From a phage: a stretch of 64,000 nucleotides of DNA. Positions 5,195 through 38,724 of this stretch are shown in pieces (the first letter of the stretch is position 1; every line of letters begins with the position of its first letter). The notes under the pieces were generated by a model. It saw only the letters and a list, made by a program, of their open reading frames with translations. It was not told where the DNA came from and made no database searches. Location of the stretch: sequence record PZ386970.1. One strand, written 5' to 3'. Both the position numbers and the translations under genes were made by a program.

Positions 5195-7408
5195 TTATTT
5201 GGCTGCTTCCACAGCCTTCATGAATTTAACGATTTGAGCGACCTGTTCTTTGGAAAGAGTACCACGTCGTCCCATGTATTCTGACACAATATGATAATTG
5301 GTTTCGAATTCAATAACCATTTTATCATCATTATCGTAAGCATTATCTTTAAGCTTATCGAAAATTTTAGCACACAATTCTAACTTCCTGTTCAGGTCTG
5401 TATTAGTAGCACCTGCGAATCGATTCCATCCCCAACGATTATTTACTGTTGAGAGTTTTGCAAAGTCTTTACTGATTTCTTTGTTCTTAGAGCTAAAATA
5501 CTTACTAAGGAAATTAAGCTCTTCATTACGAGTAATATGATTCAAATAAGGCTGTGCTCTACGACTTGGTGATACATACTCATCATAATCTACTTTATCG
5601 ATTAGCATAATATAGTCATTAATTGATTTTTCAAACAAACATTCTACTTCACCGAGTTTACGAACTTTCTTAGCAATCTGTGGGCGGACTACAGTGAACT
5701 CTTTAATACCTGACAAATCGGCAATACGGGTCAAGAAATTAGAGTCATAGTTCAACCAACCTTTATCTGCGTCAAGACATTCAGCATTAGAACGATTACG
5801 AACTATAGCATAACCTTGGATTTCATCAGCTTCACTCGCTGGAATAAAGAGATCTTCTGATACCCAAACATCGTTTTCATTCTTAAAGAACCGATGAGCA
5901 CTTGGGGATTTAGGACGAGGCTCATTAGTCCGTTTCCTGACTTCAATCCATGGCTTAACGATTTGTAAAAGCTCTGAAGTCTTGTACATGTTAATGTTGT
6001 CGCCATCAAAGATAACTTTAAGGCGTTCCAGAAGTTTCATTGCATCTTCGTCTGTAGGGTCAACGAATAGTACGCTTTTACCAAAACCACGTGGAACTTT
6101 ACCTGATAATTTAACCTCGTCTTTAGACATTTCAATTGAATTAAGAGCTCGCATTAATGGAACGCGTCCCTTAACGTCGTCAATAACAATTTCAACGTTT
6201 TTAATGTTAATGCCGATCAGGCTGTTAATTGAAATGGTTGATGATGAGCTACCACTTTCACGAATACGACGAAGACGAGGAGATTCAACGATATCGTATA
6301 CGACGCCAAGATTACACCACTCAGGCCCCATTTTAAAACGTTTGTACAACTCAGAATAAGTTAGTTGTTCTTTAGAGTATTTCAGTGATTCAATATTAGA
6401 CCCAGCCTTTTCCATGTATTTACGAGCGGTATAGCCAAGAGAATCAATTTCGCGGAACACATGACGTGGGTATTTACAATCAATCCATTTCTTAGAATCT
6501 TCAGCGAACAATTTAGCATCGATTTCTGCAACGCGTTTATGGATATTTGCTACTGTACGTTTATCAAATGACAATGCTTCACGAGACGGGGCTACATCTA
6601 GTTCACCCATAGGGAATTTAATATAAGCTGTAGTGCATCGCGTCATCATCCATGTTTGTTCTTTAATAACACTTCCGATTGGATATACAATGCCGCCATA
6701 AACAGCCATGATATTACCACGTTCACCCCATGGAGCTTCCTTGGCTAAATAAACATCATCGAATTCCGGGAAGTATTTGATATCTTTAACACCACGAACT
6801 TCTGCAATATCGCCGAGAGGACGCATAACATAAGCAATTTCGGATGCAAACTTTTCAAAATCTTCCGGGTTAACCGGTACAACTACTTCTACACCCGTAC
6901 GGTCATCAGGACCCATCTTATCTACAAAGGTCGGCTTAATCTGTGGACCACTGTCATCTTGATAAATTACATAACCACGAACTTCACCATTATGATAAGA
7001 CGTAAGGTTAAACGTATCAGTATATGCTAATGGAGCTTTAGAGCCGAGTCCGAATCCACCAATGAAATCGTTACTCGATGTTTTAGTTGAAGCAAAATAT
7101 GAGTTATAAATTCCTGGCTCTTCGTCATTACCACGAATAGTGAAATCACTCATACCCGGACCAAAGTCTCGAACTACAAAACGTGGGTCTAAACGACCTG
7201 GAGCCTGAACAATAAACTTATCAGTGCAACCATTAAGAATTTGCCCATCAATACAGTTTGTGATTAATTCACGTACACAAGCCAATTCTTTGTTTGTATA
7301 AAGGTCATTAGACAAAATCTTATAAACTTTGCTATTGCCTTGAATAGTGAATGCTGTGCTCTTACCGCCTGAACCAATAATCGTTTCTTTAGCCGTTTCG
7401 ATAATCAT
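5195..7408 (-). CDS. rIIA: rIIA protein
   Basis: 737 aa, size and position between 39 and rIIB as in T4. Confidence 0.8.
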   Translation of the reverse strand: MIIETAKETIIGSGGKSTAFTIQGNSKVYKILSNDLYTNKELACVRELITNCIDGQILNGCTDKFIVQAPGRLDPRFVVRDFGPGMSDFTIRGNDEEPGIYNSYFASTKTSSNDFIGGFGLGSKAPLAYTDTFNLTSYHNGEVRGYVIYQDDSGPQIKPTFVDKMGPDDRTGVEVVVPVNPEDFEKFASEIAYVMRPLGDIAEVRGVKDIKYFPEFDDVYLAKEAPWGERGNIMAVYGGIVYPIGSVIKEQTWMMTRCTTAYIKFPMGELDVAPSREALSFDKRTVANIHKRVAEIDAKLFAEDSKKWIDCKYPRHVFREIDSLGYTARKYMEKAGSNIESLKYSKEQLTYSELYKRFKMGPEWCNLGVVYDIVESPRLRRIRESGSSSSTISINSLIGINIKNVEIVIDDVKGRVPLMRALNSIEMSKDEVKLSGKVPRGFGKSVLFVDPTDEDAMKLLERLKVIFDGDNINMYKTSELLQIVKPWIEVRKRTNEPRPKSPSAHRFFKNENDVWVSEDLFIPASEADEIQGYAIVRNRSNAECLDADKGWLNYDSNFLTRIADLSGIKEFTVVRPQIAKKVRKLGEVECLFEKSINDYIMLIDKVDYDEYVSPSRRAQPYLNHITRNEELNFLSKYFSSKNKEISKDFAKLSTVNNRWGWNRFAGATNTDLNRKLELCAKIFDKLKDNAYDNDDKMVIEFETNYHIVSEYMGRRGTLSKEQVAQIVKFMKAVEAAK

Positions 7409-7420
7409 GTTTTTCTCTCA

Positions 7421-7621
7421 TCACAAGTTACGTTTAAAAATTTCTGCTACTTCAAGAAGTTCTTCTTTAGTAGCTGTGTCGGTTTGTATTTTATATCGAA
7501 TTTCCTTAAAGCGTTCTTTAAAGGCTTCAGCTGATTCGATATCAAAAAATCTTTGGATAAGCCGGAATTCCCGGAGCACTGCTTTATCAAAAAGTTCCAA
7601 GTCCACGTTATATGTTCTCAT
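7421..7621 (-). CDS. hypothetical protein (66 aa), rIIA.1 position
   Basis: ATG ORF MRTYNVDL... with RBS; synteny. Confidence 0.5.
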   Translation of the reverse strand: MRTYNVDLELFDKAVLREFRLIQRFFDIESAEAFKERFKEIRYKIQTDTATKEELLEVAEIFKRNL

Positions 7622-7645
7622 AATATTCTCTTCAGTAGATTCCTA

Positions 7646-7698
7646 GGGCACTATTACTAAAGACCATATAATCTATCATCTTATGTGTAATAGTGCCT
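7646..7698 (-). other. perfect 11-bp inverted repeat (GGCACTATTAC / GTAATAGTGCC) with 29-nt AT-rich loop
   Basis: seen directly in sequence, between the glycosyltransferase stop and the next start codon. Confidence 0.6.
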
Positions 7699-7713
7699 CA
7701 GGCGATTCAGGAT

Positions 7714-8814
7714 TTACGCTGTGAAGATTTTATCCCACATCGCAACAACTGCATCTCGATTATACTTCTTCCATACTGCTTCAGCACGTTTAACTCGAGC
7801 TTCGTATGTGTCAGTGAATTCTAATACAGCTTTTGTGTAAAGCGCAACTACTTCTTTCTTAGGAGTAGAAGAATCAATTTCTACACGCACAGTATCTGGG
7901 TCATATTCGAATGTCGCATGAGGATAATCCTTAAAAACTAACTGGATTACAGGGACACCTTTAGAGATGGCTTCAATAGAACTATTCTCTACCGTACCTG
8001 TGTCAGGACACGTATTAATAAGTGCTTTAGCTGTTTTAAGACGTTCCATAATTTCACTGTGTGGAGCATCAATAATAACAGGATATTTAGCTGGTGGTGC
8101 CCATTTACTAGGACAGTATCCTGCACCATTTTCGCCTAGTGCTTTAATCGCTTCAAGAGCAACATCAGTACGACGCATTTTAGTGTCATAACGTTGTGCA
8201 CTAATAATCAGATCAGTCGCCGGAAGAACTTCAGGTTTCTCATTCAAACAAATAACCGGATAATCTTCGGCTTCAAACAACGGATTTGCTCGCCAATAAT
8301 CATAATCAATTTTGTCAGTCAGTCCCGAAGTCATATAACAATATTTACGTTCAAATTCACGGAAGGCTTTAGTAGGAGCATAACTCTTACCACCATTCTT
8401 ATGAATTTGAATAGTCTGGTCCCAAATTTGAACAATGCCACGAGATACCGGCTCAAATGGTGTTGCCATAAAATTCTTATGAACTTTAGAGAGACCTGCG
8501 TCTTTAATTGCCTGAACGGTTAGTTTGGTCGGTTCCATTGTAACAACGAAATCGTACTCATTAATGCCGGCTAGTTCAACAATCTTACGAGCCATAGTAT
8601 AACTCATACCTAGACTGAATTTAGTCAGATGACCAACAGGATGATGATTAACCTTCCAATCACCAAATGTGTCATTATCAAAGCCGATATAATCAATATC
8701 AGCACCGATGGACACAAGATATTTCAACACATTTAAATGTACTGCTTCAAGACCACCTTGTACACGTTCTGGGTTAAATGGGACTGCGCGAGATGGGATA
8801 AACATAACTTTCAT
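7714..8814 (-). CDS. GT-B fold glycosyltransferase (GT4-like), candidate DNA sugar transferase
   Basis: 366 aa; N-terminus MKVMFIPSRAVPFNPERVQGGLEAV is the GT-B donor-scaffold signature; C-terminal E..SIEAISKGVPVI motif; lies between rIIA and 39. Confidence 0.7.
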   Translation of the reverse strand: MKVMFIPSRAVPFNPERVQGGLEAVHLNVLKYLVSIGADIDYIGFDNDTFGDWKVNHHPVGHLTKFSLGMSYTMARKIVELAGINEYDFVVTMEPTKLTVQAIKDAGLSKVHKNFMATPFEPVSRGIVQIWDQTIQIHKNGGKSYAPTKAFREFERKYCYMTSGLTDKIDYDYWRANPLFEAEDYPVICLNEKPEVLPATDLIISAQRYDTKMRRTDVALEAIKALGENGAGYCPSKWAPPAKYPVIIDAPHSEIMERLKTAKALINTCPDTGTVENSSIEAISKGVPVIQLVFKDYPHATFEYDPDTVRVEIDSSTPKKEVVALYTKAVLEFTDTYEARVKRAEAVWKKYNRDAVVAMWDKIFTA

Positions 8815-8821
8815 AATTAAG

Positions 8822-8857
8822 CCTTATTAAAATTAAAATGAAGCTCCCGAAGGAGCT
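8822..8857 (-). terminator. UUCG-tetraloop hairpin (AGCUCC-UUCG-GGAGCU) plus U-rich tail, overlapping the HNH gene stop
   Basis: stem-loop followed by UCAUUUUAAUUUU on minus strand. Confidence 0.45.
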
Positions 8858-9654
8858 TAGGACATCCAACACATTTTATAACCTTTGCAGGTTCTGTTAG
8901 GATTATTTAATGCTTTCAATATATTAGAAGACCCTATACCTAAATACTCCCTTAATTCATAAAGATAGTTAAAATCAATAGTTTCACCTGTTTTTACACT
9001 TGTGATTCTTATAGGCCTTCTTTCATATTTAGATTTATACAACTCTCTAGTCTTAGCTTTAGTTTCTTCTGACCTAGGAGTGTATGGTTTAAATCCTTTT
9101 GTTTTAAATGTTTCCATTCTTGATTTAGTTATTTTATCCTGGTGTTCTTTTGTTTTTACAGGTGCTTTTCGCCCATTCTCCCAAGATAACTTGTTGGCCT
9201 GTATTATTTTATCTATTGCTTCTTGCGTATGAGTTTTACCATAAAATGGATTTAATTCGCCTATACGTTGTGAAGCAATATGTGACATTAATTCTCTTGT
9301 TGCTTTAGTATGTTTTTTACCTTTAAATGGGTTGCCATTTTTAGCAATCCATTCTTTCATAAATCTAGAGTGCTCTTTAGAGAATTCTTGTTTAAGCCAA
9401 TCATAATCTCTAGAATTTCTAGCTCCCATGTAAAAAGCTCTAATAGCCATAAGCGTAGAACGGTTCTTATGAATTTTATAAAGCAATAAATGGGCGATAA
9501 AATGCTCTCTAGGGGTCATTTTAACTAGATTTGATTTAGCATTACTCCCGCCCATAGATTTAGGCAAAATATGGTGAGTTTCAGTATAATTAGGAATAGT
9601 GCTGCGGTTTTTAGCCGCAGCGATAAGTTTATCATAAATTTTACGATAATTCAT
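8857..9654 (-). CDS. HNH homing endonuclease with NUMOD-like repeats (free-standing, Mob-like)
   Basis: HHILPKSMGGSNAKSNLVKMTPREHFIAH HNH motif; repeated NPFYGKxHT motifs; ATG overlaps gene 39 stop (TAATG); track start is an upstream TTG. Confidence 0.75.
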   Translation of the reverse strand: MNYRKIYDKLIAAAKNRSTIPNYTETHHILPKSMGGSNAKSNLVKMTPREHFIAHLLLYKIHKNRSTLMAIRAFYMGARNSRDYDWLKQEFSKEHSRFMKEWIAKNGNPFKGKKHTKATRELMSHIASQRIGELNPFYGKTHTQEAIDKIIQANKLSWENGRKAPVKTKEHQDKITKSRMETFKTKGFKPYTPRSEETKAKTRELYKSKYERRPIRITSVKTGETIDFNYLYELREYLGIGSSNILKALNNPNRTCKGYKMCWMS

Positions 9655-11474
9655 TATCCTAGCATCCAATCTTTACGGAGTTCAGGGTCGTTACCCATGA
9701 GCATTTCAAATAGTTCTTTCCAATTTTCAGGAAGTTTAACTACGTCGTACACAGGGTTTTGAATCATTTCTTTATATTCATCCCGCTGAAGTGAGCCCAA
9801 TCCCTTGATGTATCGAATACTATGCTTAGGCAGTGTATCTTTAGCTTCTTCATACTCAGCTACAGTATAAAACCATTTTTGAGATTTGCCAATTTGTGCA
9901 ATAATTACAGGTGTTTTAACAAAGCGAATACGTCCTTGTTCAAACAATTCAGGCCAATTACTAAAGAAAGCAAGCAAAGCCGGATAGATACTTCCAAGAC
10001 CGTCATGATCGGCATCGGTCATAATTGCAATATTACGATAGTTCGTATTCTCTGCCTTTTCACCAAGAATAAGACCTGTGATAGCACAGATATCAAAGAG
10101 CTCTTTGTTCTTCATCATATCAGCATATGACATACCCCAGCTATTCATCACCTTACCACGTAACGGGAATCCACCATGTAGTTCACGGTCACGAACATCA
10201 ATGAGATAACCAATTGCCGAATCACCTTCTGTTAAGAACAATGTCGTATCTGCATCTTTACCACATTGGTTAGCTTTAATATGCTTATGAACCTTAGCTT
10301 TAGTTGCCTTTTTAGCTGCTTTAGTTTCTGCAGCCTTTTCTGCTGCCAATTTACGAGCTAATGCTGCTTCAACAATAGGCATAATCAAGGCTTCGTTTTT
10401 AAGAAGCGCCTGAGCAATTTTCTTAGCATCTAATTGGATATGATTACGAATATCACCATACGTTGACGTTAAACGTTCTTTAGTCTGAGAATCAAAACGC
10501 ATGTTGCTCATGTCTCTAATAAACATCAACATTGTGAGACATTCTTTAACACGAGCTTTAGTGACTTCAATACCCTTATATTTCTTTTTAATACCCGGCA
10601 AAAGATGTTCGCAGATATCATCCATTACACATTCAACATGATGACCGCCATTTTTAGTATGGATGTTATTAACATAAGTTAAATGACGGAAGCCATCTGG
10701 TGATGTTGTGAATGCTATAGAGACTTTATCATTTTCTTGAATGATGTTATCTTCACCAAATTGTTTAGCAAATCGTTTAAAATTACCATCAACCTTTTTA
10801 CCATTAAATGTGAACTTGATATCAGGATAAACGACTGCCAATGTTTGAAGTCGGTCTAAAGTAATATCTAAATAAATTTGAGATAAATTATGCTCTTCAA
10901 ATGAAGAGAAATCAGGAGTGAAGATTACTTTAGTGCCTTTACCTTTAGATTTCTTAGAAGACCATGATTTGTTTTCCATTCCATTTGAACAGTTAACAGT
11001 GATTTCATTTTCACCATCTGACGTGATGCCTGTAAACAACGTAGAGAAGATATTAGTTAAACTACTCCCGACGCCGTTCATACCACCAGTCTTGCGTTCA
11101 GAATCATCACCAAAGTTACCACCAGCTTTTGGAATAGTCCAGGCTGCTACAGGCCCAGGAATTTGTTCACCTGTTTGGTCGGTAACTAAACCTTGAGGAA
11201 TACCACGTCCGTTATCTTCAACCGAAACTTGATTATTTTTAATTTGCACATCAATTTTATTTGCAAACTTAAATGATGTACGAATAGCTTCATCAACTGA
11301 GTTGTCAATAATCTCATCGATTAATTTAACCAGGCCAGGAACATATTCAACTTGTTGATATTTACCAAACAAAAAACGCTCATGTGCTTCTTTGGCCGAA
11401 GAACCAATATACATACCACTACGTTTCTTAATATGTTCTACATCTGACAATACCTTAATTTCATTTTTAATCAT
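9654..11474 (-). CDS. 39: DNA topoisomerase II large subunit (GyrB-like ATPase + Toprim), unsplit gp39
   Basis: 606 aa; MIKNEIKVLSDVEHIKKRSGMYIGSS N-terminus; Toprim LFLTEGDSA...DADHDG at C-terminus in the same ORF. Confidence 0.9.
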   Translation of the reverse strand: MIKNEIKVLSDVEHIKKRSGMYIGSSAKEAHERFLFGKYQQVEYVPGLVKLIDEIIDNSVDEAIRTSFKFANKIDVQIKNNQVSVEDNGRGIPQGLVTDQTGEQIPGPVAAWTIPKAGGNFGDDSERKTGGMNGVGSSLTNIFSTLFTGITSDGENEITVNCSNGMENKSWSSKKSKGKGTKVIFTPDFSSFEEHNLSQIYLDITLDRLQTLAVVYPDIKFTFNGKKVDGNFKRFAKQFGEDNIIQENDKVSIAFTTSPDGFRHLTYVNNIHTKNGGHHVECVMDDICEHLLPGIKKKYKGIEVTKARVKECLTMLMFIRDMSNMRFDSQTKERLTSTYGDIRNHIQLDAKKIAQALLKNEALIMPIVEAALARKLAAEKAAETKAAKKATKAKVHKHIKANQCGKDADTTLFLTEGDSAIGYLIDVRDRELHGGFPLRGKVMNSWGMSYADMMKNKELFDICAITGLILGEKAENTNYRNIAIMTDADHDGLGSIYPALLAFFSNWPELFEQGRIRFVKTPVIIAQIGKSQKWFYTVAEYEEAKDTLPKHSIRYIKGLGSLQRDEYKEMIQNPVYDVVKLPENWKELFEMLMGNDPELRKDWMLG

Positions 11475-29432: not shown

Positions 29433-29971
29433 CATTTAATGATTTCTGTAATCAAATAATTACGTTCGCTTGCATTAAATCCTATAACTTTGTTAGCACC
29501 ATCATGATTAAGTAATTGATACGTTTGGATTTTGTTATGAATTGCAAACTCTTCAAAATATGAAATGACTGTATTAAAACCGAATGAAGACAAAGTAATA
29601 AGGTCGTCTTCAAAACTTTCAGTCATTTCGTTACGTGTTAAAATAATTGTGAACACATCATGGTTTTGGCAAAGACGAACATAATCCTGTTCATAAACGT
29701 CAAGAACCGAGTCCACATCTTGTCGAATACGTCCATAAACCCAGTTACTAATATATCCACGGTCTAACAGATAAATCTTAGTAGGGTCTAAATAATTCAA
29801 CATCGTTTCGAAACAACCAACTTCATTTCGAGACTTAACATCGAAACGCCCATCAACTGTTCGTTTAGGGAAATCAATCTTTACATATCTTTCACTAATT
29901 TCCATTATGTCATTAATGAAAGTTGTTTTACCAGCATTATCTGGGCCGTCTACTAAAATAATTTTAGCCAT
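29423..29971 (-). CDS. P-loop nucleotide kinase, thymidylate kinase-like
   Basis: Walker A ILVDGPDNAGKTT; downstream DRGY motif resembling the Tmk DRx motif; 182 aa. Confidence 0.55.
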   Translation of the reverse strand: MAKIILVDGPDNAGKTTFINDIMEISERYVKIDFPKRTVDGRFDVKSRNEVGCFETMLNYLDPTKIYLLDRGYISNWVYGRIRQDVDSVLDVYEQDYVRLCQNHDVFTIILTRNEMTESFEDDLITLSSFGFNTVISYFEEFAIHNKIQTYQLLNHDGANKVIGFNASERNYLITEIIKWAR

Positions 29972-29972
29972 T

Positions 29973-30872
29973 TTATTCCTCGATTACGACATCTTCGTAT
30001 TTAGGTATATTATACGGTGAAGAAATTAAAGCATTAAAGTAGATGAACTCACCAAGACCTGGATGGAATACTTCTTCAGGATTTTCGAAATATTGAATTT
30101 TCGGACGTCCTTTAAGAATTTGATAGTACTCAGTTTTAGTTGGATTAAAAATTCGAATCAGCGCTTCTTCAGGATACTTATTTCTGTCGAAACTATTATT
30201 TGGATCAGTTATATAAAGCGGTTGACCTAATTGAATTGCGCATTCAACAACTTGTTCAAAACGATAGCATGGGTCACTAATTCGAAATGGATGAAAAATA
30301 CCATCTAGATGAATAGGAGCCAAATCACCTACAAGACGCTGCATGATGGAAGGACGTATAACTTTCTGAGTTACGATAATCTTATTACCATCTGCACCTG
30401 CGTTAACCAGCACTTCTTTTTGACGTTCATTCAACACAGTAGTTTGAAGTGAACGATTAACTGACAACATATCGGTTTTTAAGAATTCGTCAATATAAAA
30501 ACGTGGTTTATTAGGGTCTGCCGTGATATTGAAATTGAATTCTACATCAAAAGCGCCGTCATATCCAGTGATATCTGTTATTAGAAAATCACAATCATAA
30601 TAAGCAATTAATGAATCAACCACAAATTCATTTTCAGACCAGAAATATTTACGAGTGTTATACGCGTTATCTTTATACCATAATGGAACAAACTTAAATT
30701 CCGGGAAAAGACGTTCACATTCTTTAATATCAGATGCATTACGTGGATATGTAATCACATCACCCGGATTAGCACGGTGCAAATGAAGTTGGAAGTTGCC
30801 ATCCTTAAGGATAGCATACTGTCCAGTTTCATAAGACCGCATACTCAAGATTGGTACGCGGAAAATAGCCAT
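29973..30872 (-). CDS. hypothetical protein (299 aa), cluster member of unknown function
   Basis: TAATG-coupled to the hydroxymethylase-like gene; no family recognised. Confidence 0.5.
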   Translation of the reverse strand: MAIFRVPILSMRSYETGQYAILKDGNFQLHLHRANPGDVITYPRNASDIKECERLFPEFKFVPLWYKDNAYNTRKYFWSENEFVVDSLIAYYDCDFLITDITGYDGAFDVEFNFNITADPNKPRFYIDEFLKTDMLSVNRSLQTTVLNERQKEVLVNAGADGNKIIVTQKVIRPSIMQRLVGDLAPIHLDGIFHPFRISDPCYRFEQVVECAIQLGQPLYITDPNNSFDRNKYPEEALIRIFNPTKTEYYQILKGRPKIQYFENPEEVFHPGLGEFIYFNALISSPYNIPKYEDVVIEE

Positions 30873-31588
30873 TAGTCAAGGAATCCTTTAACATAATCAA
30901 AATCACGTTCAAACACATGGGCACTTACCATGGTATGAGTATAATCACCAACTTCTACACCACATTCGTTAGCGATATAATGAAGTAATTTTCCTTGGAG
31001 ATAAAAATCCAACTGCATAACAACAGCACAATTCTGAGAACGCATATGACAGTGGGTATAAAGCTTACCATCACGAATATAATAAGTCACTGAGTCAGTA
31101 CATGGATATTCAAGCGTTTCGTCCGAATCAAGCAAAGCCTGATCAGAACTTTCTAGAATTTGGAACACAACTCTTCGGGAGTTAGGCTTCTCTTTAAGTT
31201 CTTTTAGAAGAGCTGGTAATTGGGCCGCAATTCGAGGACCATAGAAAGTGTTGAAGTTCGCAGGCAAAGCATCTGATTTTGGTTTAGAAATAAATTTAGC
31301 GACATTAGGATATGCCTTAAACGCTTCTTCTGCATCAGTACCACCAGAAATCATAAACTTCCAGAAATCTTCGGCATATTCATAAGAGATGCGGTTAATA
31401 CGTGGGTCGGTCATTTTGAATGATGATGGAGTGTCAACAACTACTGTCATGGACCCAATTTCATTACAACGTCCAATACGAGAATCAGTTACGAATTCCG
31501 GGTTTTCTAAAATTTCACGATTGACTGCTTTAAATGCGGCTTGAAAATCTGCTGCTTTGATATATTTCATTGTGTTATGTTTTCCCAT
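30872..31588 (-). CDS. 42: thymidylate synthase-family pyrimidine hydroxymethylase, gp42-like (dCMP hydroxymethylase), divergent
   Basis: KPNSRRVVFQI and PCTDSVTYYIRDGKL align with T4 gp42 NPDSRRGIMIY and MCTNTVQYLIRDKKI (catalytic Cys); 238 aa. Confidence 0.7.
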   Translation of the reverse strand: MGKHNTMKYIKAADFQAAFKAVNREILENPEFVTDSRIGRCNEIGSMTVVVDTPSSFKMTDPRINRISYEYAEDFWKFMISGGTDAEEAFKAYPNVAKFISKPKSDALPANFNTFYGPRIAAQLPALLKELKEKPNSRRVVFQILESSDQALLDSDETLEYPCTDSVTYYIRDGKLYTHCHMRSQNCAVVMQLDFYLQGKLLHYIANECGVEVGDYTHTMVSAHVFERDFDYVKGFLD

Positions 31589-31607
31589 GTTTACCTCAAT
31601 ACAATTT

Positions 31608-31633
31608 ATTATATACTCAATTCGTAAAGCTTA
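31608..31633 (-). promoter_or_regulatory. putative middle-type promoter (GCTTTAC box, 11 nt, TATAAT)
   Basis: upstream of the hydroxymethylase-like gene. Confidence 0.3.
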
Positions 31634-31870
31634 TTTGAATTTCTTGGCAATGTTGATATAACGTAAAGCTTCAGAATCTATACTTCCAAGAACACTATGA
31701 AGGAATGCATCAGTGTAGTATTCCAATTGAACAGGTTCTTTAATCACTTTAGCCGCTTTGGTTTCAAACAGGCCCATCAGGGCCTTTTTAAGAATTTGTT
31801 CGTTAGTGTTCAGTTTTATAGTCAAAATCTCTTCATTAAGTTTATAATTAAAAGTTTTTCTAGAAATCAT
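31631..31870 (-). CDS. hypothetical protein (79 aa)
   Basis: ORF only. Confidence 0.4.
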   Translation of the reverse strand: MISRKTFNYKLNEEILTIKLNTNEQILKKALMGLFETKAAKVIKEPVQLEYYTDAFLHSVLGSIDSEALRYINIAKKFK

Positions 31871-33027
31871 TCCGGGTACCTCAAAGCGTCATCAGAGTTA
31901 GTTATATCAATAATAGATATAGAGTTTTCTGCTAACCCGTTTTTAGATAATTGACGTTTATAATACCTTTCACAATATGTACACGTTGACCCACAGATTT
32001 CATTAGCACAATCAAAATCCGGATGTCTGAACCACCTTTTTTCTAAAAAGCCATCTAACAAAGAGGTTTCAATATTTACTGTATGTGAAAACTCAGTCTC
32101 ATTTTCAAGAGTGAAAATAGTCTCTAAAGGCTTCCACAGTTCTAACAAATTACCTTCAAACTTTTCAGAAGCGTATGCTTCAAGAACTTTCAAAATGTAG
32201 TCTGTGCTACCTGTACGTCCTGAAACTTTGAATTGAGTGATACCAATATCATTATAAAGTTTCAAATCTTGTGGACGAACAAAACGAGTTCTCAACCAGT
32301 TAAACGGGTCTGTATCACGAGCTTTAATACAGTGCTGCATAGGATATCCATTTAAGGATTTAGCATCATCAGCTGTAACATCAGTACTATGGAAAATATA
32401 GCAAGAGTCACGATAGCTACAATGTGTTGTATACCCTTTACCAGCATTAGAACAGAACTCATTTACAAGAACTTCAAATATTATATTGTTTTTATTGCAA
32501 AACTCTGCTGCACGCTTCAGGAAAGAAACTGAACGGTTCTTATGAATTCCACAGCAGACCTTTTTGATATTATACTGGTCATGTAAGTATTTGATTTGAG
32601 TTACAGCATCGACATGTAGAATTGTTGAAACTTCAATCTCAATGTCTTTATTGACTTCACGAACAATTTCCATAACAACAGGGTTAGCGATAGTAATACG
32701 CCATACGCCTATTGACCAAAGATACTGAACATAATCCTGAATAGCTTTCTTCTTCCACTCAACTAGTTCTCTTTTTGAACCAGGATTTATCGTGTTGAGT
32801 GTATAGTTAAAGCAAATACCTAATTCGTTACAACGTTTAACATAATCTTCTAACATCTTTTTGTCAACGTCAGGAAGCCTAAAATCAGGTCTGGCTGCTA
32901 CAAAAGCCATTTCTCTTGTAGAGCCGTATACTTCGTTTATCAAGCTATTAGGATAAGTTTTATTGAGCTCTACGATTTTATCAAGAAGAGCTAAATCAAA
33001 ATTCGTTCCGATTTTAAAAGTATTCAT
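31867..33027 (-). CDS. Cys-rich putative metalloenzyme, weak resemblance to peptidase-U32-family Fe-S proteins
   Basis: 386 aa; EVLVNEFCSNAGKGYTTHCSY resembles the U32 signature; additional C-terminal CxxxxCxxxCxxC; N-terminal pattern similar to U32 barrel. Confidence 0.35.
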   Translation of the reverse strand: MNTFKIGTNFDLALLDKIVELNKTYPNSLINEVYGSTREMAFVAARPDFRLPDVDKKMLEDYVKRCNELGICFNYTLNTINPGSKRELVEWKKKAIQDYVQYLWSIGVWRITIANPVVMEIVREVNKDIEIEVSTILHVDAVTQIKYLHDQYNIKKVCCGIHKNRSVSFLKRAAEFCNKNNIIFEVLVNEFCSNAGKGYTTHCSYRDSCYIFHSTDVTADDAKSLNGYPMQHCIKARDTDPFNWLRTRFVRPQDLKLYNDIGITQFKVSGRTGSTDYILKVLEAYASEKFEGNLLELWKPLETIFTLENETEFSHTVNIETSLLDGFLEKRWFRHPDFDCANEICGSTCTYCERYYKRQLSKNGLAENSISIIDITNSDDALRYPE

Positions 33028-33083
33028 TTTTTTGCATCTCGCGTTAATTGATGCGATGGTTTTTGCAGGTCTTACTTAAATTA

Positions 33084-33452
33084 TTATAGATTCGGTTTAT
33101 ATGATTTAAATGTTTCGAATTCGCCTTTATTCATAAGAGCTTTGAATTCGTCAGGACGCATAGCTTTGTCGTCGATAATCCAATCATATACTGGTTTATG
33201 TGTTAGCAAATTATGGTACTTCAAACCAATGTTTTCCAAGTTCTGAATCAGACTTGGGAGAATGTCAATTGCTATACGACCAGGACCTACTGACTTCATA
33301 CCACGAGCAGTGTAAAGCGTTATGGTATGCCCTGCATCATACAGGGCATTAATGGCAGACACCATTTCGACGTCTGGTTTGAAGTTCACGTAATCACGAT
33401 TGTTATTCCACTCTGTTATACAATCATCGACATCAAAACAAAGATTAAGCAT
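33084..33452 (-). CDS. small HAD-like phosphatase (122 aa from MLNLCFDVDD)
   Basis: FDVDDCIT (motif I-like), TARG, DWIIDDK (motif IV-like); resembles KdsC-type phosphatases; motif I imperfect. Confidence 0.35.
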   Translation of the reverse strand: MLNLCFDVDDCITEWNNNRDYVNFKPDVEMVSAINALYDAGHTITLYTARGMKSVGPGRIAIDILPSLIQNLENIGLKYHNLLTHKPVYDWIIDDKAMRPDEFKALMNKGEFETFKSYKPNL

Positions 33453-33469
33453 GTTTTCTACACGGTGCA

Positions 33470-35155
33470 TTAGATTCGTTCCCATTGATGAGTGATATCG
33501 CCACCGATTGGACGATAGGAAACACCAGTTTCTTTATCAGTTAGTACCCATTTACCAGGATTTTTTGTAATCAGAGTAGCCGTTACAGGTTCTGCTACGT
33601 CATAACTAATAGAGCCGTCCTGAAGTACACGGCCCATGTTACGTAATTGCTTAGTCAGAAGTTCCATGCCTTTATAATATGCGGCTACCGCTTTAAGTGG
33701 ATTATTCTTGAAATAACCACCCAATGCAATCCAGATAATTGCCACCGCCAAATGATGATACTCGTTAAACGAACTCATCTTTCCATATTTGTAAACTAAT
33801 GGATTGATGTTAATAGTCACATTACAAGTTGTTTCATCAATAGTAAACTGACCCCAGGTCGGATTAGCATTGAATTCATCATAACCTGAAACAGCATAAA
33901 GCACTTTAGCTTCATCATATAATTTTGGCCCGTAAATCTTGGTTTCACCAAAATATCCACGAGGGTCGATAAACTTGACTTCGCCGTTATCAGTAATCAT
34001 AGTATTACTGAAGTTCGGGTCACCGTGAATAACAGAGTACTGTCCCTGAGAACGGTTATGATAACGAATAAGATGTTCTAAAGCTTGTTTCAACATTGGC
34101 TTCAGACGTCCAATCTTAGTGTAGTTCACGTGTGTGATTTTACCAAATGAATCAATCAATGGCTGAATGCTTTCACAACGATCAATAACTTTCGTATAGA
34201 ACTCTTTAGTGAAATCACGGCGAACAGTTTCAGGACTTACAAAATAAGTGTCTGTGCTGAATTTCAGTGCATCTAAAATTGCATCAACAATTTGTGGACG
34301 AGCAAGACTTGATTTGGATTTAATATATTCAAATGCCGGCTTACCTTTAATGCGTTCCATTTCAAAGTTATTTTCATTAACAGAAACTAACTGAGGAACT
34401 GAATCTGATTTCACTTTCAAATACCACGAAATCTCATCTTTCTGAAGAGCTCGACCCTGTTCGGTTAATGCGAATTTAGTTACAGTTTCTTCACCAATTT
34501 CAACTGCATTAAAACTACGATTAAGTTCACGAACTTCATGAGCTTTTTCAAGTTTAGGCATATCACCTAAATCAATTATATTCATAAGCTCTGATTTATT
34601 GAATGCGCCGCTGTAAAGGAATTCTACGAAATCACGTCCTTTGCAGTATTCATGAATTTCCTCATCGGTAGAACCCATATAGAATTCCCAGTCTTTGAAT
34701 TGATAAATTCCTACAACATTACCGCCTGTTGCACCTACATTAGTGATATTTTCACCGTCGAAATTATATCGACATTCATCACCCTTAACATAGATTGCGT
34801 TAACATTCCAAGACCATGAACCAAAATCAGGAATAATATCGCACCAGTTAACAATTACGTTATGGCCGTCTAAATCTTTGTGTAATTTAGCAAGAGCATA
34901 AGCAGAACCATACGCTTCATCAACTGTACGAATAGTCACATTGAACCCTTCTTGCTCACAATAAGCTCGAACAGTTTCAGCAAATTTTGAATGAACTACT
35001 ACAATAATTTCATCTGCGCCAAGGTCAGAATAAATTGTATATAAATTGCTCAGAATAGTGTCTTGTTTATAGTTAACAAGCACCTTAGGAATATGATGCG
35101 TTATTGGATACAAACGAGTTGCCAGTCCGGCACCAAGAATAACAGCTTTTTTCAT
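33470..35155 (-). CDS. bifunctional sugar-1-phosphate nucleotidyltransferase (N-terminal) / APH-like sugar kinase (C-terminal)
   Basis: N-terminus MKKAVILGAGLATRLYPIT (GxGTRL NTP-transferase motif); C-terminus VIHGDPNFSNTMI...FIDPRG (Brenner HGDxxxxN and DxE/D kinase motifs); 561 aa. Confidence 0.65.
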   Translation of the reverse strand: MKKAVILGAGLATRLYPITHHIPKVLVNYKQDTILSNLYTIYSDLGADEIIVVVHSKFAETVRAYCEQEGFNVTIRTVDEAYGSAYALAKLHKDLDGHNVIVNWCDIIPDFGSWSWNVNAIYVKGDECRYNFDGENITNVGATGGNVVGIYQFKDWEFYMGSTDEEIHEYCKGRDFVEFLYSGAFNKSELMNIIDLGDMPKLEKAHEVRELNRSFNAVEIGEETVTKFALTEQGRALQKDEISWYLKVKSDSVPQLVSVNENNFEMERIKGKPAFEYIKSKSSLARPQIVDAILDALKFSTDTYFVSPETVRRDFTKEFYTKVIDRCESIQPLIDSFGKITHVNYTKIGRLKPMLKQALEHLIRYHNRSQGQYSVIHGDPNFSNTMITDNGEVKFIDPRGYFGETKIYGPKLYDEAKVLYAVSGYDEFNANPTWGQFTIDETTCNVTININPLVYKYGKMSSFNEYHHLAVAIIWIALGGYFKNNPLKAVAAYYKGMELLTKQLRNMGRVLQDGSISYDVAEPVTATLITKNPGKWVLTDKETGVSYRPIGGDITHQWERI

Positions 35156-35183
35156 GTTGTGGTCCTCATTGGTAAGTAGGTGT

Positions 35184-35208
35184 ATTGTACACTATTCTAG
35201 TTAAAGCA
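35184..35208 (-). promoter_or_regulatory. MotA-type middle promoter (TGCTTTA, 12 nt, TACAAT) upstream of the nucleotidyltransferase-kinase gene
   Basis: exact MotA box core with canonical spacing to a TAnnnT -10. Confidence 0.45.
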
Positions 35209-35340
35209 TTCATACTTTGCCTGTAGACCAATCATAATCCATCCAATTACAAGTGTTGGAATCATTACTGGAGCCGTTAAGCTCCAGTAGATAGTCATGA
35301 CAAGCATCAATAGTAAAAGTCCTATTGTTATTGCTTTCAT
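35197..35340 (-). CDS. small membrane protein (47 aa)
   Basis: manual translation MKAITIGLLLLMLVMTIYWSL...; TAATG-coupled to SIS gene stop. Confidence 0.3.
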   Translation of the reverse strand: MKAITIGLLLLMLVMTIYWSLTAPVMIPTLVIGWIMIGLQAKYECFN

Positions 35341-35972
35341 TATTCGCCTCGTAACATGGCACCTAGTGCACCGCCAGGGTGGAACTTAAGGAAGTCATTA
35401 GAGGTAAATCCACGTTCAGAAGAAAGGTTGATAGCAAACGTATCGATAAGCGCTAACAACAATGTAGTGGACATTGTCGGAGCTAAAGAGTTCTCATCGA
35501 CCTCTACCGCGATGCCTGTACAGAAAGAGTAATCAAAAAGGGCTTCATTTTCTTGCGGAATGTCAGGGTTACAATGTAACAGAATCTGTTTAACCTGAGG
35601 ACGAATCATACGAAGATGTTTAGCAACACCTATCATTTCTTCGGTCTTACCAGAACGACTAATATGAATCAACACATCATTAGGCGCAATGAATCCTGCA
35701 TCACCGTGAGAATAATGCCCGGTGTTCAAGTACATACTAGGAATACCTAGTGAAGCAAATGTCTCAGAAGCTTTAGTTGCAATATTAGCATTCTTACCAA
35801 CACCTGTAATAATTACTCGGCTTTCATAATTACTAAGTCCTGGGCGTCGAAGAGTTTCTAGAATAGCATTATAACGAGCAGGGTTTTGACTAATTACTTT
35901 GGCCATAGTAGCCAAAGAAGAAGCTTGTTTTATGATTGCGTCAATAGCGATAGTGATTGGTGTAGTTTTCAT
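35340..35972 (-). CDS. SIS-domain sugar-phosphate isomerase, KdsD/GutQ-like (arabinose-5-phosphate isomerase-like), no CBS domains
   Basis: VIITGVGKNANIATKASETFASLGIPS...HISRSGKTEE and FLKFHPGGALG match the KdsD SIS domain; 210 aa. Confidence 0.7.
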   Translation of the reverse strand: MKTTPITIAIDAIIKQASSLATMAKVISQNPARYNAILETLRRPGLSNYESRVIITGVGKNANIATKASETFASLGIPSMYLNTGHYSHGDAGFIAPNDVLIHISRSGKTEEMIGVAKHLRMIRPQVKQILLHCNPDIPQENEALFDYSFCTGIAVEVDENSLAPTMSTTLLLALIDTFAINLSSERGFTSNDFLKFHPGGALGAMLRGE

Positions 35973-36012
35973 ATTTCTCTCATTTAATTAGTTTACCGTC
36001 CATGGTATTATA

Positions 36013-38724
36013 TCAAAAATCGAACATATCGAACAGAGATGCTTTCTTCTCGTAATCGAGTTTCGCTGCTGATGTGAATCCTTCAAGTGGTTTAATAAAT
36101 GTCTTCTCAAGGAGAACAGTGTAGTCCATCCAATGAAGTACGTCGTCTTTAATTAAATCTGTGATTTCAGTACCAGAAGGCCATGCGATACATTTATCAC
36201 CGAATGGGTTTCCATCACGTAAAGGCAGAACGTATACCTTTTCGCCTTCTACAACTTGTGGAGCATCAATATTACCTTTGATAGCCCGGTTATATGTCAG
36301 AATTCCACGAATATGGAACGGGCATTTAGGACCAGGGAATCCACCAACGTCATATTTAGCAATGTTATTCGCAGAAGATACCGACGCGATGCTAATATAA
36401 TTCAATTGACGGAATTCTTTTTCAAACTCTTTAAAATATTCTTGTAATGATTCTTCACCTTCTTGAAGCATACGACGAATACATTCTTTAAGAGCTTTCT
36501 GTACTGCTTTAGGGGTCGAAGATTTCTGAGTCTCTAGACCCATGATTTTGAGTTTAGGCTCAGCGTAACGAGTACCTTCCATATCCCACACGTTTAATGC
36601 ATAACGTTTCTTACCAGTCCAGAATCCACCAATACCTTTAGAACCAAGCGGAGGCCCAGCGATAGCTTCTCGGTCCATGAACATCAAATGTTGCTTATTA
36701 TTCATGTATTCGCACATTTCACGGAAACCTCTATCAATAGCAGGTTCCATACGTTCACGAGCGAACTTATCTAAGAAGTCTACCCAATGGTTGGTATCAC
36801 GGAATTTAGATTCACCAACCTTATCGATAATTTTATCAGCAGATACGTAAATAGAGTCTGTATCACCATAAAGAACGAAAGCTTCGCCTTCTGTACCACA
36901 AACTTCATTCAGATATTCATTAACTTTACGTTCAATCCACTGTAAAGCCATTTGCCCGAATGTTGTGATTGCAGTAGCATTACGCAAATCATAATAACGG
37001 AACCAAACGTTACCAAGTGCACCATAAAGTGAGTTGATAAGCAATTTACGGTTAATTTGTGCAGTCATACCTGCAACTTCAGTACGTTGAGCTCTAAACA
37101 GCATTTCATTAAGAGATTTAGCAGACAACTTTTTAATCTTTTCTTTAATCTCATCACTGAAGTCGAAACGATAATCAACATCTAATGGTTCGTCAACAGA
37201 AAGATTAGGATTATGCAATGCCTCTTTAATTATTTCACCATTACGTTGAGCTGCAAGCATGTAACCTTTATGTTCTTTACGTTGATTAAAGACCTTAGTG
37301 ATTTCAGTTGGAACTACACCATCACGGTCTTTATAATACATCATGCCGTTAGGAGAGCAACTGTACACATCTGAAGGACGTTCAGCAACAGCGTTAATAT
37401 AATCATGCAATGGAGCTACTTTAAACGTTCCTGCTATTGTTTCTGGGCTAATATTCACTTGGCGAATAATACTTGGATACAGAGATGTAAGGTCGAAACT
37501 CATTACATATTTGTATCGATTTGGAATAGGTTCCTTAACAAAAGCGCCTGGGTAAGGTTGAACTGGATGCGAACGACCTTGTGGAATCACCTTGTTCTGC
37601 TCTTTAAGGCTATTAAAAATAATAGCATCCCATGTTTTAATTGGGCTAAACACAGATTGAATCTGTATCTTAGCATAATAACCCATGTCCAAGCTCAAGT
37701 TAATGAACTGGCGTTTAGCATCAATTTGCAATACACGATACACGTCGATAATGTTATAAGAAATATATCGTTGGTGATTGCTTTCACGAAGCTTAGAAAT
37801 AGGGCCGTCGTATTTCAGTTTACCAACGTTCAATTCAAATTCTGAAATGTAATCCAGAGAATATGACGGTTGATTGGTAAAAGAGAATTTTTTGTAAAGG
37901 TCAATGTAATCAAGAACAGAGATACCGAACAATGTAATGATTTCACGAGAACCATACATGTTTTCGATAACTTTAACACGAGTTTTACGATGTGGCGATA
38001 AACGTTTCGCAGTAGATTCGCCAAAAATATTCTTGATTCGGTTATACACATATGGAATATCAAATGACTCAACGTTCCATCCAGTCAAAATGACAGGAGT
38101 TTTCTGTTGCCAGAAGTTGAGATATTCCATCAACAATTCTTTTTCGTTATCGAACGGCATATAAATGATTTTATCGATAATTTCAGATGGAACTTCATCA
38201 CCGCCTTGTTCTTGAAGCTTAGCCGCAATTTCGATAGACCATTCTTCTACATTACCATATGGAGAATTCAATAGATCAAATACGTAGAACCTGTCGTCAA
38301 TTGAGTCATAATGGGTGATAGCATCAATCGGATGTTTTGCTTGTGACGGCTCAGGGAACCCATCCGGAGATGTTACTTCGATGTCGAAGTTAGCCACACG
38401 AATTTTTGTATGGTCGTATTTGATTTCATAGTTATAAGTGTCAGACAAATACGCCAATTTGAAATCGTCCATGCCAAGTGCTTCAAGTCCGATATCTTCC
38501 ATGCGTTTAATCCATTGGGAGGCATCACGCATATTAGCGAACAACTTACGAGTACACGGCTTACCGTAGATATCGAAATATTTCGTAGCCTGACTTTCTG
38601 GACAATGAGCAAACAGTGATGGTTTATATTCTACTTCGCGAGTACGTTCACGGCCATTAGAATCGATGTAACGTTCAAAAATTGAATCACCAATCTGTTC
38701 AACCGTTAAGTAAAATTCTTTCAT
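36013..38724 (-). CDS. 43: DNA polymerase gp43 (family B)
   Basis: 903 aa; exo motifs FDIE and YNIIDV, pol motifs DLTSLYPS, KILINSLYG, YGDTDS. Confidence 0.95.
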   Translation of the reverse strand: MKEFYLTVEQIGDSIFERYIDSNGRERTREVEYKPSLFAHCPESQATKYFDIYGKPCTRKLFANMRDASQWIKRMEDIGLEALGMDDFKLAYLSDTYNYEIKYDHTKIRVANFDIEVTSPDGFPEPSQAKHPIDAITHYDSIDDRFYVFDLLNSPYGNVEEWSIEIAAKLQEQGGDEVPSEIIDKIIYMPFDNEKELLMEYLNFWQQKTPVILTGWNVESFDIPYVYNRIKNIFGESTAKRLSPHRKTRVKVIENMYGSREIITLFGISVLDYIDLYKKFSFTNQPSYSLDYISEFELNVGKLKYDGPISKLRESNHQRYISYNIIDVYRVLQIDAKRQFINLSLDMGYYAKIQIQSVFSPIKTWDAIIFNSLKEQNKVIPQGRSHPVQPYPGAFVKEPIPNRYKYVMSFDLTSLYPSIIRQVNISPETIAGTFKVAPLHDYINAVAERPSDVYSCSPNGMMYYKDRDGVVPTEITKVFNQRKEHKGYMLAAQRNGEIIKEALHNPNLSVDEPLDVDYRFDFSDEIKEKIKKLSAKSLNEMLFRAQRTEVAGMTAQINRKLLINSLYGALGNVWFRYYDLRNATAITTFGQMALQWIERKVNEYLNEVCGTEGEAFVLYGDTDSIYVSADKIIDKVGESKFRDTNHWVDFLDKFARERMEPAIDRGFREMCEYMNNKQHLMFMDREAIAGPPLGSKGIGGFWTGKKRYALNVWDMEGTRYAEPKLKIMGLETQKSSTPKAVQKALKECIRRMLQEGEESLQEYFKEFEKEFRQLNYISIASVSSANNIAKYDVGGFPGPKCPFHIRGILTYNRAIKGNIDAPQVVEGEKVYVLPLRDGNPFGDKCIAWPSGTEITDLIKDDVLHWMDYTVLLEKTFIKPLEGFTSAAKLDYEKKASLFDMFDF

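Follow-up and report, generated by a model that had tools for sequence, protein, structure and literature searches.

A CBS-less isomerase, a bifunctional kinase/nucleotidyltransferase and a minimal HAD phosphatase as a probable UDP-arabinofuranose supply module of a Mosigvirus

The 64,000-nt stretch of phage DNA analysed here (sequence record PZ386970.1; hereafter the window) carries, between positions 33,084 and 35,972, genes for a SIS-domain isomerase and for a small phosphatase of the HAD superfamily, with the gene for a 561-aa bifunctional nucleotidyltransferase/kinase between them. We consider it highly probable that this region supplies the sugar-activation half of the system by which Mosigvirus phages arabinosylate their DNA; this half would convert ribulose 5-phosphate (Ru5P) of the host to UDP-arabinofuranose. 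This finding is already known as the published Afh/RB69 UDP-arabinofuranose pathway: the DNA arabinosylation system was proposed in 2018, biochemistry and structures followed in 2025–2026, and the isomerase-phosphatase pair noticed by a first-pass annotation of the sequence adds nothing new. What we contribute is the three-enzyme anatomy of the region, the view that the isomerase is probably dispensable, the recurrence of the minimal HAD protein beside SIS isomerases in bacteria, and a lead on a neighbouring protein of the U32 family.

The phage is a Mosigvirus, an RB69-like T-even phage with 98% identity to PhAPEC2. Over the 6 kb from 29973 to 36012, identity is 98% to Escherichia phage vB_EcoM_PhAPEC2 and 95–99% to 155 phage records, which fall within or near the genus Mosigvirus, and the proteins of the window show about 99% identity to their RB69 counterparts. 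For RB69, arabinose was found on the DNA, and a module including ORF055c and ORF53_52c was proposed to synthesize UDP-arabinose (Thomas et al. 2018, PMC6024577). The modified base is arabinosylated 5-hydroxycytosine and not hydroxymethylcytosine, gp48 produces 5-hydroxy-dCMP, and cytosine is wholly replaced (Lee et al. 2026, PMC13326640). A second Mosigvirus carries the same DNA modification (PMC13390438).

Enzymes of the sugar-activation module

Homology and conserved catalytic residues suggest that the CBS-less SIS enzyme would convert Ru5P to D-arabinose 5-phosphate (A5P). The following steps can be modelled on AfhE and AfhF of Escherichia phage HY126, as described in PMC13326640, which summarises He et al. 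2026. The C-terminal kinase domain of the 561-aa protein would phosphorylate A5P at C1 to arabinofuranose-1,5-bisphosphate, as reported for the kinase domain of AfhE, and the 128-aa HAD protein would strip off the 5-phosphate to yield arabinofuranose-1-phosphate, as reported for the Mg-dependent phosphatase AfhF, whose structure is solved. The N-terminal nucleotidyltransferase domain of the 561-aa protein would then form UDP-arabinofuranose from the 1-phosphate, as reported for the transferase domain of AfhE. The acceptor base would come as 5-hydroxy-dCMP from a thymidylate-synthase homologue (ThyA-like), and two glycosyltransferases would move arabinose onto the 5-hydroxycytosine of the DNA (Table 1); the role of the first arabinosyltransferase was proposed in PMC13326640, that of the second (ORF003c) in PMC6024577 and PMC13326640. 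Placed at every cytosine of the genome, the arabinosylated base would render the phage DNA resistant to many restriction enzymes and shape its sensitivity to defence systems. A5P should cyclise only as a furanose, and phosphorylation at C1 before removal of the 5-phosphate would lock the furanose ring that is found in DNA; free arabinose should be mostly pyranose. To our knowledge, E. coli makes no UDP-arabinofuranose-type nucleotide sugar as needed by this pathway.

The first-pass annotation had described the isomerase as a 210-aa protein of the KdsD/GutQ type that lacks the CBS domains, and our analysis bears this out. The protein matches Pfam SIS (E 2.6e-10), PHROG 5670 (E 7e-116), the NCBIfam models for KpsF/GutQ (TIGR00393, E 4.7e-32) and KdsD (NF008141, E 1.3e-30), and a GutQ model as well. 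The NCBIfam matches cover the SIS part of the models only, and the scores lie below the curated cut-offs set for full-length proteins (111.6 versus 203.7 and 106.8 versus 505). An alignment gave 36% identity to residues 23–202 of E. coli KdsD. The chain ends about 10 residues past the HPGGALG motif, where the CBS pair of KdsD begins, and tandem CBS domains are absent. Residues K60, H89, E112, E157 and H198 align with K59, H88, E111, E152 and H193 of E. coli KdsD, which we take to be its active-site residues, and these alignment columns are invariant. The best match in the PDB was 3ETN (E 3e-25), followed by 5UQI (1e-22) and 2XHZ. By these similarities the protein is a CBS-less enzyme of the A5P isomerase type, with interconversion of Ru5P and A5P as predicted reaction, and its place is rather among single-domain isomerases such as 3ETN and 5UQI. 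Since these best solved relatives are single-domain proteins, the absence of CBS domains is not novel per se. A tblastn match of the KdsD CBS region at 7142–7264 on the plus strand (E 0.02) was dismissed as chance; it lies antisense within the rIIA gene.

The SIS and HAD genes had been taken to be adjacent, but a 47-aa open reading frame (ORF) and the gene for the 561-aa protein intervene, both between 33,084 and 35,972 and both previously unmentioned. The core gene of the region and its likely purpose, the supply of UDP-arabinofuranose for DNA arabinosylation, had been overlooked, and product, purpose and anatomy had been misjudged. Residues 3–99 of the 561-aa protein match Pfam NTP_transferase, and the N-terminal part also matches NCBIfam models of sugar-1-phosphate nucleotidylyltransferases, including MurU, and PDB 1JYK. 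Weak matches to Pfam kinase families cover residues 344–409. Judged by these matches, the N-terminal domain is classed as a sugar-1-phosphate nucleotidyltransferase and the C-terminal domain as a kinase of the aminoglycoside phosphotransferase (APH)/choline kinase type; AmgK, too, is an APH-like kinase. The motifs GAGLxxRLYPIT, HGDPxxSN and IDPRGYFG are unchanged across five homologues of 45–58% identity. The protein is 98.9% identical to RB69 ORF053c plus ORF052c, which are actually one gene (Thomas et al., PMC6024577). We rejected the public label 'bifunctional protein GlmU', as this match is limited to the N-terminal nucleotidyltransferase and the remainder is a kinase.

That a small HAD-like protein exists was correctly seen: 24 homologues all keep the motifs DxD (D13, D15), T54, K92 and D100/D101. 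Its length had been given as 122 aa, which corresponds to one of three possible starts (33485, 133 aa; 33470, 128 aa; 33452, 122 aa). Many homologues begin at the position of the 122-aa start. The 128-aa form, which is annotated in PhAPEC2 and was crystallised as 9IQW, starts at an ATG overlapping the stop codon upstream (TCTAATGCAC, TAATG), and 128 aa is most likely the correct length. The protein is 99% identical to PDB 9IQW, entitled 'phage HY126 encoded D-arabinose 1,5-diphosphate phosphatase AfhF', and from this identity it is predicted to be the AfhF-equivalent D-arabinose-1,5-bisphosphate 5-phosphatase.

Motifs I–IV place the protein in the HAD superfamily but do not mark it as a KdsC. 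The comparison with KdsC in size, made in the first-pass annotation, did not hold: with 128 aa (122 or 133 aa from the alternative starts) the protein is 60 residues shorter than E. coli KdsC (188 aa). It differed from KdsC in everything KdsC-specific that we tested, namely subfamily membership by sequence or structure, size and the presence of KdsA and KdsB partners in the window. The absence of KdsA- and KdsB-like genes, already reported earlier, was confirmed by tblastn of E. coli proteins against the whole window: KdsA, KdsB, KdsC, GmhA, GmhB and HldE gave no match, and KdsD alone matched, only at the SIS ORF. The match of the HAD protein to TIGR01689 (EcbF/BcbF capsule biosynthesis phosphatases) spans almost the entire model (E 1.6e-13), with 50.7 bits against a cut-off of 162, and by this score the protein is related to that family but not a member. 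In public records, which annotate the genes of this module very unevenly, it is mislabelled as 'phosphoheptose isomerase', 'capsule biosynthesis protein' or 'polynucleotide kinase'. We rejected the first of these labels, since the HAD motifs are present and similarity to GmhA is lacking.

Occurrence in phages and bacteria, and alternative explanations

To learn which of these genes belong together, we compared 50,697 phage records. Of these, 374 encode the kinase/transferase, 376 the HAD protein, 276 the SIS protein and 222 the U32 protein. In the same order, the counts were 177, 177, 137 and 137 for Escherichia phages, 25, 25, fewer than 3 and 26 for Klebsiella phages, and 57, 57, 57 and fewer than 3 for Acinetobacter phages. 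At the polymerase-gene locus of Dhakavirus WG01 and of Klebsiella phage kv_tblp5 no SIS gene was seen (loci L008 and L010); both phages carry genes for kinase/transferase (about 43–45% identical to that of the window), HAD, ThyA-like protein and glycosyltransferase there. The HAD gene directly follows the AfhE-type gene in the window, and this order is also found in WG01, in Acinetobacter phage fHyAci03, in kv_tblp5 and in a metagenomic phage genome. From these loci and counts it follows that the conserved unit is kinase/transferase plus HAD, always in that order, and that the isomerase is accessory.

Because related phages have kinase/transferase and HAD without SIS, the phage isomerase is probably dispensable, and it probably acts as a flux booster rather than as an indispensable step. 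Gram-negative hosts already produce A5P for the synthesis of 3-deoxy-D-manno-octulosonate (Kdo). WG01 and kv_tblp5 would either use A5P supplied by the host or use a different sugar. According to a rough estimate, about 62,000 cytosines per genome with 1–2 arabinoses each and a burst of 100–200 would require at least as much arabinose as the cell requires Kdo per generation, which would explain the use of an extra, CBS-less isomerase.

In bacteria (one genome per species was surveyed), 79 loci encode relatives of the HAD protein with about 30–43% identity, including a mis-binned phage genome with the whole module. At 9–10 loci of Chitinophagales and Sphingobacteriales the HAD gene comes directly before a gene for a CBS-less SIS isomerase, and KdsA is next in line (L022, at 5980–7704, and L020, L026, L027, L029, L030, L032, L033 and L087). 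GmhA lies near the HAD relative in 7 loci, and an HldE-like gene in 7. In sugar pathways, members of the minimal HAD family are thus repeatedly found next to a SIS isomerase, where they plausibly take off the distal phosphate.

An alternative to the bisphosphate pathway is a route via free arabinose, in which the SIS enzyme makes A5P, the HAD protein dephosphorylates it and the kinase phosphorylates C1 of free arabinose, following the logic of AmgK/MurU salvage. The match of the 561-aa N-terminal domain to MurU models fits this route, and so does the APH-like C-terminal domain, as in AmgK. These are, moreover, exactly the functions that Table 1 of PMC13326640 lists for RB69 gp51 and for the C-terminal domain of gp52:53; the first-pass annotation, which expected free arabinose as output, had in effect arrived at an earlier published hypothesis. 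Against it stand the title of entry 9IQW, a 99% identical protein deposited as a D-arabinose 1,5-diphosphate phosphatase, and the text of PMC13326640, in which AfhE is an A5P kinase and AfhF dephosphorylates the 1,5-bisphosphate. Free arabinose would also disfavour the furanose form found in DNA. Therefore, while the earlier view that the pair was co-opted away from Kdo synthesis stands, free arabinose as its output does not, and we regard this route as improbable. Some points nonetheless weigh against the pathway that we favour. The order of its substrates is taken from the title of the 9IQW entry and the summary of He et al. 2026 in PMC13326640, whose Table 1 still gives the order A5P, arabinose, arabinose-1-phosphate. 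The family of the kinase domain includes anomeric kinases of free sugars (AmgK-like, with MurU), and homology alone leaves the order undecided. The isomerase activity of the RB69-type SIS protein is a proposed one (PMC13326640), and the loss of SIS in other lineages was judged from individual loci and collection-wide counts.

The pair could also serve to manipulate the host envelope by boosting or diverting the synthesis of Kdo, lipopolysaccharide or capsule precursors. Public labels ('KpsF', 'capsule biosynthesis protein', 'phosphoheptose isomerase'), the match of the HAD protein to TIGR01689 and the position of its bacterial relatives beside A5P isomerase and KdsA, or beside GmhA and HldE, all point in this direction. 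However, tblastn against the window found no KdsA, KdsB, GmhA or HldE, the score for TIGR01689 is far under the cut-off, and 'phosphoheptose isomerase' is a mislabel. As the genes lie amid genes for DNA precursors and DNA glycosylation and the genus has arabinose on its DNA, we give this explanation hardly any credence. The same is true for the idea that the HAD protein acts on dNMP pools, instead of on a sugar, as a phosphatase of nucleotides or polynucleotides, be it a 5'(3')-deoxyribonucleotidase or an enzyme similar to the Pnk phosphatase. Some records do annotate homologues as polynucleotide kinase, but the identity to the characterised AfhF speaks against such a role, as does the constant place of the HAD gene immediately behind that for the sugar kinase/nucleotidyltransferase; in the window, the stop and start codons of the two overlap.

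Gene context and the U32-family neighbour

All genes of the block from 29973 to 36012 lie on the minus strand. From the side of gp43 they are arranged in the order SIS, 47-aa ORF, 561-aa gene, HAD, U32, 79-aa ORF, ThyA-like and 299-aa gene (Table 1), and PhAPEC2 labels these 8 genes, in the same order, as equivalents of RB69 ORF055c, 054c, 053c+052c, 051c, 050c, 049c, 048c and 047c. The second glycosyltransferase gene is located 21 kb away from the sugar-activation genes. For the SIS, 561-aa, U32 and first glycosyltransferase proteins the PDB held no entry of close identity. The 5-hydroxy-dCMP synthase is publicly mislabelled as 'thymidylate synthase' or 'dCMP hydroxymethyltransferase'.

Table 1. 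Coordinates of the genes discussed, listed from the DNA polymerase gene onwards, and of the distant second glycosyltransferase gene.
Feature	Position	Strand	Basis or remark
DNA polymerase gene gp43	36013-38724	-	start of gene order
CBS-less SIS-domain arabinose-5-phosphate isomerase (predicted), 210 aa, RB69 ORF055c/gp55 equivalent	35340-35972	-	Pfam SIS, NCBIfam, PHROG 5670
47-aa hydrophobic ORF, RB69 ORF054c equivalent	35197-35340	-	phrog_3610
561-aa bifunctional nucleotidyltransferase/kinase (predicted), RB69 ORF53_52c/HY126 AfhE equivalent	33470-35155	-	Pfam, NCBIfam, PDB 1JYK, RB69 identity
128-aa minimal HAD phosphatase (predicted), AfhF equivalent, RB69 ORF051c	33084-33470	-	99% identity to PDB 9IQW
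386-aa U32-family protein, RB69 ORF050c equivalent	31867-33027	-	Pfam Peptidase_U32 E 7e-11
79-aa ORF, RB69 ORF049c equivalent	31631-31870	-	phrog_8601 full length, E 3e-50; annotated in PhAPEC2
Thymidylate-synthase homologue, predicted 5-hydroxy-dCMP synthase, RB69 gp48 equivalent	30872-31588	-	Pfam Thymidylat_synt; PDB 9IQC, 9IR2, 9IQU, E 4.5e-162
299-aa putative first DNA arabinosyltransferase, RB69 gp46:47 equivalent	29973-30872	-	PhAPEC2 'similar to RB69ORF047c'; phrog_3891 E 1.5e-155
366-aa putative second DNA arabinosyltransferase, RB69 ORF003c equivalent	7714-8814	-	99% identity to RB69 ORF003c

The 47-aa ORF is strongly hydrophobic, and its ATG overlaps the stop codon of the SIS gene (TAATG). 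It matches phrog_3610 over its full length (1–47 of 47, E 7e-27); the PhAPEC2 version is annotated shorter, with 36 aa, and the ORF is absent between the SIS and kinase genes at the fHyAci03 locus. A small ORF resembling the 79-aa ORF is also present downstream of the U32 gene in kv_tblp5. Between the genes for the ORF003c-like glycosyltransferase and topoisomerase, the window contains a 270-aa ORF with NUMOD3 motifs of the homing-endonuclease type (8857–9669, minus strand), at a position where RB69 has no gene. A scan of 29800–36200 for promoters and terminators gave the same counts as shuffled sequence. By eye we noticed TGCTTTA and TACAAT spaced by 12 bp at about 35170–35200 (minus strand), upstream of the 561-aa gene, which resembles a middle (MotA-dependent) promoter of T4.

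The U32 gene lies directly downstream of the HAD gene, outside 33,084–35,972. The only entry for its product in PMC13326640 is 'sugar or heterocycle reductase', with no mention of U32. Ten cysteines of the protein are invariant in an alignment, those of a C-terminal Cx4Cx3Cx2C motif among them, and its conservation exceeds that of its neighbours: across the phage genera listed, tblastn identity was at least 82%, versus about 60–70% for HAD. Many relatives with 48–58% identity are encoded on phage-like contigs in clusters for nucleotide metabolism and DNA glycosylation, next to genes for dCMP deaminase, UDG, deoxynucleotide kinases, dUTPase/DCD, a TAGT-like DNA glycosyltransferase or a KdsA-like protein. 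One phage-like metagenomic contig of 80 kb (L094, 6001–8804) has UDG-like and nucleotide-kinase genes upstream of the U32 homologue and a KdsA-like (DAHP_synth_1) gene and an epimerase gene downstream of it, possibly a different cluster for the sugar-based modification of DNA.

In pairwise BLAST the U32 protein had no significant match to RlhA, TrhP, UbiU or UbiV of E. coli. Profile comparison with hhalign ranked E. coli RlhA best, with a modest E value of 1.3e-4, and TrhP and UbiU lower. RlhA is the 5-hydroxycytidine synthase for 23S rRNA, and the ThyA-like 5-hydroxy-dCMP synthase requires oxygen and flavin. One tentative interpretation, which we consider possible but doubtful, is that the published pathway is incomplete and that the U32 protein may be an oxygen-independent, Fe-S-dependent pyrimidine C5-hydroxylase, functionally akin to RlhA/TrhP. 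If this were true, it would provide 5-hydroxycytosine, and hence a use for UDP-arabinose, during anaerobic growth in the gut. The idea that U32 tracks facultatively anaerobic hosts found partial support only: the gene is absent or nearly absent in the 57 Acinetobacter phage records, yet it is also absent at the locus of WG01, an E. coli phage.

Comparison with known systems

The closest system is the Afh pathway of HY126 (AfhE, AfhF) and of RB69 (gp55, gp52:53, gp51), which has the same genes in the same order and belongs to the same genus. The ThyA-like protein of the window is almost the same as 9IQC, and identity reaches 99% between the HAD protein and AfhF and likewise between the second glycosyltransferase and ORF003c; the differences are a few amino-acid substitutions and a length difference of one codon at the N-terminus of the SIS protein. 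The AmgK-MurU pair comprises the same domain families as the 561-aa protein, a MurU-type transferase and an APH-like kinase. AmgK, however, acts on a free sugar, whereas the reported substrate of the 561-aa type of enzyme is a 5-phosphate ester, and a phosphatase step is placed between its two activities.

The ADP-heptose pathway (GmhA, HldE, GmhB) follows the same logic as the module of the window, with a SIS isomerase, an anomeric kinase, a phosphatase for the distal phosphate and a nucleotidyltransferase. Beyond the SIS and HAD superfamily folds no sequence similarity between the two is detectable, and BLAST gave no match to GmhA, GmhB or HldE. The kinase of the window is APH/choline-kinase-like and not ribokinase-like, its transferase is of the MurU/RmlA-type NTP_transferase family instead of the cytidylyltransferase fold, and its substrate is a pentose and its nucleotide UDP, unlike in the ADP-heptose pathway.

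Only for its first enzyme does the module have a homologue in the Kdo pathway (KdsD, KdsA, KdsC, KdsB), and both presumably start with the same reaction. The SIS protein has no CBS domains, the window contains no KdsA or KdsB, and its HAD protein is unrelated to KdsC by sequence. A5P would be phosphorylated at C1 in the pathway of the window, whereas it is condensed with phosphoenolpyruvate in the Kdo pathway. The single-domain isomerases of Bacteroides fragilis (3ETN) and E. coli (5UQI) share the architecture of the SIS protein, a SIS domain alone in about 200–220 aa; that of the window is encoded by a phage and would serve DNA modification rather than Kdo or capsule synthesis.

The analogy to Kdo synthesis gains some evolutionary support from the operons of Chitinophagales and Sphingobacteriales, in which an adjacent pair of HAD protein and CBS-less isomerase occurs in an apparent Kdo operon. 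There, a HAD protein of 116 aa with about 40% identity to that of the window is encoded directly upstream of the isomerase. KdsA is third, and no kinase/nucleotidyltransferase gene is detectable beside the pair, unlike in the phage module. This pair presumably serves Kdo synthesis. The 8-phosphate of Kdo-8-phosphate is the former 5-phosphate of A5P, and in these bacteria the minimal HAD protein, not a canonical KdsC, may be the Kdo-8-phosphate phosphatase. The SIS-HAD pair of the phage may have descended from an operon of the Chitinophagales type.

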